Below are positions 14,909 to 18,746 of a stretch of DNA of 64,000 nt, piece after piece. Under the pieces are notes generated by a model that saw only the letters and a program-made list of their open reading frames with translations, made no database searches and was not told the DNA's origin. The stretch's first letter is position 1. Each line of letters begins with the position of its first letter. The stretch lies in the NCBI RefSeq assembly GCF_017348835.2, contig NZ_CP071375.1. The stretch is one strand, 5' to 3'. This DNA comes from Escherichia coli (GTDB lineage: Bacteria; Pseudomonadota; Gammaproteobacteria; Enterobacterales; Enterobacteriaceae). The translations under genes and the position numbers were made by a program.

Positions 14909-15233
14909 GGTTCTGCTGCTTGGGTTACTGGTTGGCGCGGCGAATTATTGCTTCCGCTATTTGCCGCTGCGCCTGCGTGTGGGTAATGCCCGCCCAACCA
15001 AACGTGGCGCGGTAGGTATTTTGCTCGACACCATTGGCATCGCCTCGATATGCGCTCTGCTGGTTGTCTCTACCGCACCAGAAGTGATGCACGATACACG
15101 CCGTTTCGTGCCCACGCTGGTCGGCTTCGCGGTACTGGGTGCCAGTTTCTATAAAACACGCAGCATTATCATCCCAACACTGCTTAGTGCGCTGGCCTAT
15201 GGGCTCGCCTGGAAAGTGATGGCGATTATATAA
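14898..15233 (+). CDS. ygaH: AzlD-family exporter subunit YgaH
   Basis: 111-aa membrane ORF overlapping the ygaZ end. Confidence 0.9.
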
Positions 15234-15323
15234 CCCACAAGAATCATTTTTCTAAAACAATACATTTACTTTATTTGTCACTGTCGTTACTATATCGGCT
15301 GAAATTAATGAGGTCATACCCAA

Positions 15324-15854
15324 ATGGATAGTTCGTTTACGCCCATTGAACAAATGCTAAAATTTCGCGCCAGCCGCCACGAAGATTTTCCTTATCAGGA
15401 GATCCTTCTGACTCGTCTTTGCATGCATATGCAAAGCAAGCTGCTGGAGAACCGCAATAAAATGCTGAAGGCTCAGGGGATTAACGAGACGTTGTTTATG
15501 GCGTTGATTACGCTGGAGTCTCAGGAAAACCACAGTATTCAGCCTTCTGAATTGAGTTGTGCTCTTGGATCATCCCGTACCAACGCGACGCGTATTGCCG
15601 ATGAACTGGAAAAACGCGGTTGGATCGAACGTCGTGAAAGCGATAACGATCGCCGCTGCCTGCATCTGCAATTAACGGAAAAAGGTCACGAGTTTTTGCG
15701 CGAGGTTTTACCGCCGCAGCATAACTGCCTGCATCAACTCTGGTCCGCGCTCAGCACAACAGAAAAAGATCAGCTCGAGCAAATCACCCGCAAATTGCTC
15801 TCCCGTCTCGACCAGATGGAACAAGACGGTGTGGTTCTCGAAGCGATGAGCTAA
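15324..15854 (+). CDS. mprA: MarR-family repressor MprA (EmrR)
   Basis: 176-aa ORF recognised as MprA/EmrR, upstream of emrAB. Confidence 0.9.
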
Positions 15855-15898
15855 CGCGTCATCTCGCTCAAAAATCCAGATTTATAAAAGAAAAAATG

Positions 15899-15930
15899 AC
15901 CGGCCAGCATCGCAACATGCTGGCCTTTTT
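15899..15930 (+). terminator. Hairpin plus T-run between mprA and emrA (possible attenuator)
   Basis: ggccagcat/atgctggcc 9-bp stem followed by ttttt, inside an operon. Confidence 0.45.
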
Positions 15931-15980
15931 GGCAAGCAGGTCGGCTCAGCCGATGAGTTAAGAAGATCGTGGAGAACAAT

Positions 15981-17153
15981 ATGAGCGCAAATGCGGAGAC
16001 TCAAACCCCGCAGCAACCGGTAAAGAAGAGCGGCAAACGTAAGCGTCTGCTCCTCCTTCTCACCTTGCTCTTTATAATTATTGCCGTAGCGATAGGGATT
16101 TATTGGTTTTTGGTACTGCGTCATTTCGAAGAAACCGATGACGCATACGTGGCAGGGAATCAGATTCAAATTATGTCTCAGGTGTCTGGCAGCGTGACGA
16201 AAGTCTGGGCCGATAACACCGATTTTGTAAAAGAAGGCGATGTTCTGGTCACTCTCGACCCGACAGATGCTCGCCAGGCGTTTGAAAAAGCCAAAACTGC
16301 ACTGGCTTCCAGCGTTCGCCAAACCCACCAGCTGATGATTAACAGCAAGCAGTTGCAGGCGAATATTGAGGTGCAGAAAATCGCCCTCGCGAAAGCACAA
16401 AGCGACTACAACCGCCGTGTGCCGCTGGGCAATGCCAACCTGATTGGTCGCGAAGAGCTGCAACACGCCCGCGACGCCGTCACCAGTGCCCAGGCGCAAC
16501 TGGACGTCGCGATTCAACAATACAATGCCAATCAGGCGATGATTCTGGGGACTAAACTGGAAGATCAGCCAGCCGTGCAACAGGCTGCCACCGAAGTACG
16601 TAACGCCTGGCTGGCGCTGGAGCGTACTCGTATTGTCAGTCCGATGACCGGTTATGTCTCCCGCCGCGCGGTACAGCCTGGGGCGCAAATTAGCCCAACG
16701 ACGCCGCTGATGGCGGTCGTTCCAGCCACCAATATGTGGGTGGATGCCAACTTTAAAGAGACGCAGATTGCCAATATGCGTATCGGTCAGCCGGTCACTA
16801 TCACCACCGATATTTACGGCGATGATGTGAAATACACCGGTAAAGTGGTTGGTCTGGATATGGGCACAGGTAGCGCGTTCTCACTGCTTCCGGCGCAAAA
16901 TGCGACCGGTAACTGGATCAAAGTTGTTCAGCGTCTGCCTGTGCGTATCGAGCTGGACCAGAAACAGCTGGAGCAATACCCGCTGCGTATCGGTTTATCC
17001 ACGCTGGTGAGCGTCAATACCACTAACCGTGACGGTCAGGTACTGGCAAATAAAGTACGTTCCACTCCGGTAGCGGTAAGCACCGCGCGTGAAATCAGCC
17101 TGGCACCTGTCAATAAACTGATCGACGATATCGTAAAAGCTAACGCTGGCTAA
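15981..17153 (+). CDS. emrA: Multidrug efflux periplasmic adaptor EmrA
   Basis: ORF 15969..17153; start trimmed to MSANAETQTPQQ (390 aa); ggag RBS. Confidence 0.9.
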   Translation: MSANAETQTPQQPVKKSGKRKRLLLLLTLLFIIIAVAIGIYWFLVLRHFEETDDAYVAGNQIQIMSQVSGSVTKVWADNTDFVKEGDVLVTLDPTDARQAFEKAKTALASSVRQTHQLMINSKQLQANIEVQKIALAKAQSDYNRRVPLGNANLIGREELQHARDAVTSAQAQLDVAIQQYNANQAMILGTKLEDQPAVQQAATEVRNAWLALERTRIVSPMTGYVSRRAVQPGAQISPTTPLMAVVPATNMWVDANFKETQIANMRIGQPVTITTDIYGDDVKYTGKVVGLDMGTGSAFSLLPAQNATGNWIKVVQRLPVRIELDQKQLEQYPLRIGLSTLVSVNTTNRDGQVLANKVRSTPVAVSTAREISLAPVNKLIDDIVKANAG

Positions 17154-17169: not shown

Positions 17170-18708
17170 ATGCAACAGCAAAAACCGCTGGAAGGCGCGC
17201 AACTGGTCATTATGACGATTGCGCTGTCACTAGCGACATTCATGCAGGTGCTGGACTCCACCATTGCTAACGTGGCGATCCCCACTATCGCTGGGAATCT
17301 GGGCTCATCGCTCAGCCAGGGAACGTGGGTAATCACTTCTTTCGGGGTGGCGAATGCCATCTCGATCCCGCTTACCGGCTGGCTGGCAAAGCGCGTCGGG
17401 GAAGTGAAACTGTTCCTCTGGTCAACCATCGCCTTTGCTATTGCGTCGTGGGCGTGTGGTGTCTCCAGCAGCCTGAATATGCTGATCTTCTTCCGCGTGA
17501 TTCAGGGGATTGTCGCCGGGCCGTTGATCCCGCTTTCGCAAAGTCTATTGCTGAATAATTACCCGCCAGCCAAACGCTCGATCGCGCTGGCGTTGTGGTC
17601 GATGACGGTGATTGTCGCGCCAATTTGCGGCCCAATCCTCGGCGGGTATATCAGCGATAATTACCACTGGGGCTGGATATTCTTCATCAACGTGCCGATT
17701 GGCGTGGCGGTGGTGTTGATGACACTGCAAACTCTGCGCGGACGTGAAACCCGCACCGAACGGCGGCGGATTGATGCCGTGGGGCTGGCACTGCTGGTTA
17801 TTGGTATAGGCAGCCTGCAGATTATGCTCGACCGCGGTAAAGAGCTGGACTGGTTTTCATCACAGGAAATTATCATCCTTACCGTGGTGGCGGTGGTGGC
17901 TATCTGCTTCCTGATTGTCTGGGAGCTGACCGACGATAACCCGATAGTCGATCTGTCGTTGTTTAAGTCGCGCAACTTCACCATCGGCTGTTTGTGTATC
18001 AGCCTCGCGTATATGCTCTACTTCGGCGCGATTGTTCTGCTGCCGCAGTTGTTGCAGGAGGTCTACGGTTACACGGCGACCTGGGCAGGTTTGGCCTCTG
18101 CGCCGGTAGGGATTATTCCAGTGATACTGTCGCCGATTATCGGCCGCTTCGCGCATAAACTGGATATGCGCCGACTGGTAACCTTCAGCTTTATTATGTA
18201 TGCCGTCTGCTTCTACTGGCGTGCCTATACCTTTGAACCAGGTATGGATTTTGGCGCGTCGGCCTGGCCGCAGTTTATCCAGGGGTTTGCGGTGGCCTGC
18301 TTCTTTATGCCGCTGACCACCATTACGCTGTCTGGTTTGCCACCGGAACGACTGGCGGCAGCATCGAGCCTCTCCAACTTTACGCGTACGCTGGCGGGGT
18401 CGATCGGCACATCGATAACCACGACCATGTGGACTAACCGTGAGTCGATGCACCATGCGCAGTTGACTGAGTCGGTAAACCCGTTCAACCCGAATGCCCA
18501 GGCGATGTACAGTCAACTGGAAGGGCTTGGGATGACGCAACAGCAGGCCTCCGGCTGGATTGCCCAGCAGATCACTAACCAGGGGCTGATTATTTCCGCC
18601 AATGAGATCTTCTGGATGTCAGCTGGGATATTCCTCGTCCTGCTGGGGCTGGTGTGGTTTGCTAAACCGCCATTTGGCGCAGGTGGCGGCGGAGGCGGTG
18701 CGCACTAA
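17170..18708 (+). CDS. emrB: MFS multidrug efflux pump EmrB
   Basis: ORF 17161..18708; start trimmed to MQQQKPLEG (512 aa); poly-Gly C-terminus. Confidence 0.9.
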   Translation: MQQQKPLEGAQLVIMTIALSLATFMQVLDSTIANVAIPTIAGNLGSSLSQGTWVITSFGVANAISIPLTGWLAKRVGEVKLFLWSTIAFAIASWACGVSSSLNMLIFFRVIQGIVAGPLIPLSQSLLLNNYPPAKRSIALALWSMTVIVAPICGPILGGYISDNYHWGWIFFINVPIGVAVVLMTLQTLRGRETRTERRRIDAVGLALLVIGIGSLQIMLDRGKELDWFSSQEIIILTVVAVVAICFLIVWELTDDNPIVDLSLFKSRNFTIGCLCISLAYMLYFGAIVLLPQLLQEVYGYTATWAGLASAPVGIIPVILSPIIGRFAHKLDMRRLVTFSFIMYAVCFYWRAYTFEPGMDFGASAWPQFIQGFAVACFFMPLTTITLSGLPPERLAAASSLSNFTRTLAGSIGTSITTTMWTNRESMHHAQLTESVNPFNPNAQAMYSQLEGLGMTQQQASGWIAQQITNQGLIISANEIFWMSAGIFLVLLGLVWFAKPPFGAGGGGGGAH

Positions 18709-18716
18709 GTACAACT

Positions 18717-18746
18717 AAGCCAGTTCATTTGAACTGGCTTTTTTCA
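18717..18746. terminator. Bidirectional terminator between convergent emrB and luxS
   Basis: 10-bp stem aagccagttc/gaactggctt followed by tttttt. Confidence 0.6.

Follow-up and report, generated by a model that had tools for sequence, protein, structure and literature searches.

EmrAB-TolC exports uncouplers and several antibiotics, and the MprA repressor (EmrR) that controls it also affects capsule and virulence genes. In the stretch of Escherichia coli DNA analyzed here (64,000 nucleotides [nt]; hereafter, the window), a hairpin followed by a run of T residues lies between mprA and emrA, which raises the question of whether transcripts end inside this operon and, if so, how the pump genes are supplied with RNA. 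Our analysis indicates that the hairpin is very probably a Rho-independent terminator at the mprA 3′ end, acting as a constitutive, partial terminator within the operon. This terminator is already known, its RNA 3′ end having been mapped in 2021 and the element having been named a Rho-independent terminator with northern evidence in 2025, and the present work is confirmatory, with a few comparative details added, and makes no discovery. New here are the near-invariance of the stem in 80 loci and the restriction of the perfect U-tract to Escherichia and a few Kosakonia-like genomes, together with a further hairpin conserved in the spacer, where an anti-Shine-Dalgarno pairing is also possible, and an IS4 element within the hairpin of one blood isolate.

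The region corresponds to E. coli emrR(mprA)-emrA and is matched in 5417 of 5426 complete genomes (at least 95% identity), in single copy and always on the chromosome. Upstream of mprA lie ygaZ and ygaH, and emrA is followed by emrB and then, on the other strand, by luxS and gshA. The emrB start was placed at ATG 17170 to match the known 512-aa EmrB. The genes and the elements of the terminator are as follows.

15324 to 15854, + strand: mprA (emrR), MarR-family repressor of emrAB (ORF list, RefSeq annotation under the BLAST match).
15886 to 15897, + strand: A-rich tract AAAAGAAAAAAT just 5′ of the hairpin (sequence; such a tract is kept in most genera).
15902 to 15925, + strand: terminator hairpin, GGCCAGCAU, loop CGCAAC, AUGCUGGCC (sequence, terminator scan, folds, related loci).
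15926 to 15930, + strand: U-tract, with the in vivo RNA 3′ end on its last base (15930, equal to MG1655 2811376).
15981 to 17153, + strand: emrA coding sequence, ATG at 15981 (ORF list, RefSeq annotation; tblastn starts conserved in 80 loci).
17170 to 18708, + strand: emrB coding sequence (ORF list, RefSeq annotation).
18717 to 18740, unstranded: emrB/luxS hairpin, which closes the operon and, on the minus strand, supplies the 3′ end of luxS (terminator scan of both strands, Term-seq).

As read from the sequence, a perfect 9-bp stem (15902-15910 paired with 15917-15925, + strand), with six G-C pairs and a loop of 6 nt, is followed directly on its 3′ side, without any spacer, by the T5 run (15926-15930, + strand), the whole reading ...AAAAGAAAAAATGACC GGCCAGCAT CGCAAC ATGCTGGCC TTTTT GGCAAG.... 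It starts 48 nt downstream of the mprA stop codon (15852-15854), and its end lies 50 nt from the emrA ATG. The initial annotation, which had described a 9-bp stem and then TTTTT between mprA and emrA, is borne out exactly on this point and the hairpin is on the + strand, its start at 15899 taking in three unpaired bases ahead of the stem, which begins at 15902. In a terminator consensus scan, the hairpin was the first + strand entry. Its minimum free energy (MFE) in a 51-nt context was −16.9 kcal/mol (z-score, −2.4), with the hairpin as the sole structure, and it persisted in both the MFE and centroid structures when 200 nt of upstream sequence was added; no antiterminator was found in this 232-nt fold. 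A strict terminator motif (perfect 9-bp stem, at least 6 GC, loop of 3-8 nt, and TTTTT immediately after) occurred once in the 64-kb window, both strands considered, and in none of 100 dinucleotide-preserving shuffles. Together with the fold energy, these counts mark the anatomy as canonical and make a chance origin very unlikely. Directly 5′ of the terminator, at 15886-15899, the A-rich run has an ARN-like pattern, AAAAGAAAAAAUGA, a layout reminiscent of Hfq-binding 3′ UTR RNAs. A REP/BIME-type repeat was ruled out, the 91-nt region being found at a median of one place per E. coli genome.

Published RNA data place a transcript end precisely at this element. A curated Term-seq 3′ end is listed at MG1655 2811376 (+), with 861 reads and the class 'orphan', on the sheet LB 0.4 (Adams et al. 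2021, Supplementary file 1; PMC7815308); the row gives the flanks ATTTATAAAAGAAAAAATGACTGGCCAGCATCGCAACATGCTGGCCTTTTT and GGCAAGCAGG on the two sides of the end, and its sequence, ...GACTGGCCAGCATCGCAACATGCTGGCCTTTTT, ends at the final T, i.e., at window position 15930. This end was called in one of three Term-seq conditions only, and its read count is modest. Drawing on the same Term-seq data, Chen et al. (2025, PNAS; PMC12704781) called the mprA-emrA element a Rho-independent terminator comprising a GC-rich stem-loop and poly-U, and their northern blots showed that the main mprA isoform is an mprA-only RNA of ~900 nt and not the 3.5-kb mprA-emrAB RNA, a read-through species described as 'previously annotated'. 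More specifically, they assigned the ~900-nt RNA to a transcription start site (TSS) at ygaH codon 49 and an end at the terminator, for which they predicted 888 nt. Codon 49 of ygaH falls at approximately 15042 in the window, and adding 888 nt leads to 15930, matching the terminator end. The element in the window strain is the same as theirs, with a C at 15900 where they have a T, outside the stem. Northern analysis had been proposed in the initial annotation, with uniform coverage across the hairpin as the outcome contrary to its reading; the published blots show the opposite, a dominant ~900-nt mprA-only RNA that ends at the terminator. The accompanying suggestion that repressor expression exceeds pump expression is likewise supported at the RNA level by this main isoform. 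SMRT-Cappable-seq long reads at the mprA locus have been presented as a figure only.

We then considered how emrAB is transcribed. A consensus scan found no sigma-70-like + strand site between 15364 and 16338, a range that covers the space between the terminator and emrA. TTGGCA at 15929-15934 was considered as a −35 element and rejected, as no usable −10 was seen by eye at 16-18 bp. Expression of emrAB depends on MprA: in laboratory-evolved E. coli mprA mutants, emrA was upregulated by ~2.9-4.4 and mprA itself by 1.6-2.7, both on the log scale of the supplement (Maeda et al. 2020), and in a Salmonella emrR deletion (delta-emrR), emrA and emrB were upregulated 5.7-5.9 fold. Given the absence of a promoter-like site in the gap and the rise of emrAB upon loss of MprA, the pump genes are most likely supplied by read-through, and the hairpin is most likely a partial intra-operon terminator. 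The initial annotation had termed the hairpin an attenuator; partial intra-operon termination stands, with Term-seq, the northern blots and the emrAB rise in its favor, and of regulated attenuation we found no sign. None of the three Term-seq conditions yielded a + strand 3′ end after emrB, which fits low read-through under those conditions.

Our preferred mechanism is as follows. RNA polymerase would start either at the mprA promoter, which MprA represses, or at the ygaH-internal TSS; once the GC-rich hairpin and the five U's had been transcribed, most complexes would release their RNA at 15930, yielding mprA-only transcripts, and a minority of polymerases would read through into emrAB, for which the 50-nt gap would hold no separate promoter. 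Partial termination would result in more repressor mRNA than pump mRNA and would partly insulate emrAB from upstream transcription, and derepression of the mprA promoter would still raise emrAB. The terminator would thereby set the share of transcription entering mprA that gets to the pump genes, and partial termination may be of benefit for the repressor-to-pump stoichiometry.

To place the element in a wider context, an MprA search on one genome per species yielded 80 loci at 90% or higher protein identity, from Escherichia, Citrobacter, Enterobacter, Klebsiella, Raoultella, Salmonella, Kosakonia, Leclercia and other genera. The mprA-emrA gap measured 114-133 nt in 79 of these 80 loci. In one locus (L019, Enterobacteriaceae bacterium RIT714, 3031-3221), the spacer has 189 nt versus about 126 elsewhere, with ~60 extra nt upstream of the A-rich tract and both hairpins intact. 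The stem core GGCCAGCA/UGCUGGCC was present in all 80 loci, imperfectly in one (L031), and the loop varied in both sequence and length (3-8 nt). RNAalifold recovered the terminator hairpin and a second hairpin as the consensus. According to pair counts in a 77-sequence alignment, the stem core is paired in essentially all sequences, with pairing-preserving changes from GC to AU (twice) and from AU to UA (once); the innermost stem pair is GC in 31 sequences, CG in 6, UA in 3 and UG in 3.

The tail was far less uniform than the stem. At the tail position (columns 93-99 of alignment A1, loci L005-L080), TTTTTGG was found only in five Escherichia sequences and three Kosakonia-like loci, TTTCTGA in 63 loci, and TTTCTGG or TTTCTAA in a few. 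Four loci carried TGTCTGA (examples being Klebsiella indica [L036], Raoultella planticola [L038] and Citrobacter braakii [L013]), in which pairing of the flanking bases lengthens the stem to 12-16 bp and no U-tract remains. We also calculated a d score for the hairpin plus T-tail with ViennaRNA energies, using a classical discriminant attributed to d'Aubenton Carafa et al. in 1990; the scores are relative values only, at about 29 for E. coli and 9-38 for other loci, with one locus below 0. Since the U-tract is poor in most genera, the conserved entity is the hairpin and not a perfect terminator, which leaves scope for a role in RNA stability. The element is probably an ancestral weaker terminator or stabilizer, with the perfect U-tract in Escherichia. 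The ygaZH genes lie upstream of mprA in all eight TTTTT loci, and TTTTT occurs in none of the 47 loci without ygaZH. Nevertheless, the idea that the perfect U-tract evolved with the acquisition of ygaZH is unsupported, given 25 ygaZH-positive loci without TTTTT and the distribution of the eight TTTTT loci over two lineages only; the link between the perfect U-tract and ygaZH is weak.

The remainder of the spacer also contains conserved elements, namely the following.

15875 to 15883, + strand: UCCAGAUUU motif in the mprA 3′ UTR, candidate anti-Shine-Dalgarno strand (MFE helix).
15940 to 15954, + strand: hairpin 2, GUCGGC UCA GCCGAU, in the emrA 5′ leader (fold, RNAalifold consensus, pair counts).
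15964 to 15974, + strand: AGAUCGUGGAG, with the emrA Shine-Dalgarno GGAG at 15971-15974 (alignment A1, nearly invariant across genera).

For hairpin 2, 98.3% of alignment cells are paired, and a UA to CG compensation occurs in two sequences. The emrA Shine-Dalgarno sequence is part of a stretch, AGAUCGUGGAGAA, that hardly varies in the alignment. According to the MFE fold, UCCAGAUUU could form a helix with AGAUC-G-UGGA (15964-15973) in read-through RNA and thereby mask the Shine-Dalgarno sequence. Partition-function folding gave a mean Shine-Dalgarno pairing probability of 0.59 versus 0.25 in controls with shuffled 5′ parts, and the pairing is predicted in most genera and absent in the Klebsiella/Raoultella group. 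In this helix, 87.6% of alignment cells are paired, with one-sided changes only; 17 sequences break one pair, and no true covariation was seen in the 77-sequence alignment. We regard the predicted anti-Shine-Dalgarno helix as a lead. A broader reading would treat the whole 126-nt spacer as a conserved composite module, in which a partial terminator, hairpin 2 and an anti-Shine-Dalgarno strand masking the emrA ribosome-binding site act together, and in which the U-tract was strengthened from UUUCU to UUUUU in Escherichia after the arrival of extra ygaZH transcription. If it were true, pump output would be damped at both transcription and translation; we consider this reading doubtful.

Partial termination has also to be weighed against a primarily stabilizing role, in which polymerase would stop further downstream or the RNA would be cleaved, and 3′-to-5′ exonucleases would trim it back to the stem, such that the mprA segment is stabilized relative to emrAB. 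The retention of the stem in loci where the tail is poor or lacks a U-tract (UUUCUGA in 63, UGUCUGA in 4) speaks for such a role, and termination and trimming are indistinguishable by Term-seq. However, E. coli carries a canonical U5 with the 3′ end on its last U, the d score is above 0 in all but one locus (relative values only), and between MG1655 2,811,1xx and 2,811,7xx, Adams et al. (2021) list neither other RNA 3′ ends nor, in their Supplementary file 2, Rho termination regions, an absence that low expression could also explain. We consider a mainly stabilizing role unlikely and take termination, not trimming, as the probable origin of the 3′ end.

We judge it very unlikely that the terminator is a regulated attenuator, i.e., that a ligand, a leader peptide, a protein or an sRNA switches read-through by means of an antiterminator structure. 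Such a scheme could draw on a 21-codon ATG ORF at 15896-15961 that spans the hairpin in the window strain, and on the further conserved spacer elements (hairpin 2 and the UCCAGAUU motif). Yet the hairpin is unchallenged in the MFE and centroid structures computed with 200 nt of added 5′ sequence, polymerase reaches hairpin 2 only once the choice between termination and read-through has been made, and the ATG of the ORF reads CTG or CCG in other species of Escherichia and in other genera. The would-be leader peptide, MTGQHRNMLAFLASRSAQPMS (+ strand, spanning both hairpins), has a start that is unconserved even within Escherichia, and its ORF is probably a chance one; we rejected the leader-peptide idea on this ground. 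Nor is there an Rfam match: a search of 15000-16500 with E values up to 10 returned nothing at the hairpin and two chance-level matches elsewhere. The mprA terminator resembles trp-type leader and riboswitch attenuators in lying upstream of regulated genes, and it differs from them in that our analysis of mprA-emrA revealed neither a competing antiterminator nor a conserved leader ORF nor an aptamer.

The near-invariance of the arms GGCCAGCA and TGCTGGCC across genera would also suit a palindromic DNA site for a dimeric regulator (a second MprA operator, for instance) rather than an RNA element. However, the arms are separated by 3-8 nt of variable sequence, a misfit to a dimer site of fixed geometry that favors an RNA hairpin over a protein-binding palindrome in the DNA; moreover, the stem changes are compensatory, as RNA pairing predicts, and an RNA 3′ end maps to the hairpin. 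A palindromic operator is therefore highly improbable. Finally, a Rho-dependent termination site or a chance hairpin has a negligible probability, the site not being among the bicyclomycin-sensitive regions of Adams et al. and the hairpin being absent from all 100 shuffles and conserved in the 80 loci.

Partial terminators are known from the interior of other E. coli operons, the rplL-rpoB attenuator and the rpsU-dnaG terminator being examples. Like these, the mprA element would be an intrinsic terminator between co-transcribed genes that lowers distal relative to proximal expression, the distal genes having no promoter of their own. Unlike in those systems, the proximal gene, mprA, encodes the operon's own repressor, and the terminator would set the repressor-to-pump ratio and shield the pump from the extra start inside ygaH. 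Another comparison is with ordinary terminators at operon ends, such as the emrB/luxS one, which has the same layout of a GC-rich stem with a T run behind it and an A-rich tract opposite. T runs flank the emrB/luxS hairpin (18717-18740) on both sides. The mprA hairpin, with its 861 reads, lies in a co-directional cluster, whereas the emrB/luxS hairpin lies between convergent genes and has 208,906 reads on the minus strand, where the luxS-side 3′ end at 2814159 (−) is very strong (Adams et al. 2021, PMC7815308).

Mutations or insertions in the terminator could plausibly raise efflux while the repressor is kept. Six mutations between mprA and emrA were reported from an evolution experiment with CCCP (bioRxiv 10.1101/392977); where other papers mention mprA/emrA intergenic mutations, these relate to sequence upstream of mprA or are given without positions. 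Across E. coli, the segment 15870-15960 is the same as in the window in 1328 genomes and has one mismatch in 4089, which in K-12 is the T at 15900, outside the stem. Six genomes showed an interrupted match to this segment. The one inspected, AF57 (a UK blood-culture isolate; NZ_OZ546943.1), carries an IS4 of about 1.4 kb inside the terminator hairpin (locus L081, 3040-3075 and 4460-4500), with its transposase on the minus strand, that separates mprA from emrA and is flanked by a 12-bp target duplication, CGCAACATGCTG, equivalent to window positions 15911-15922.
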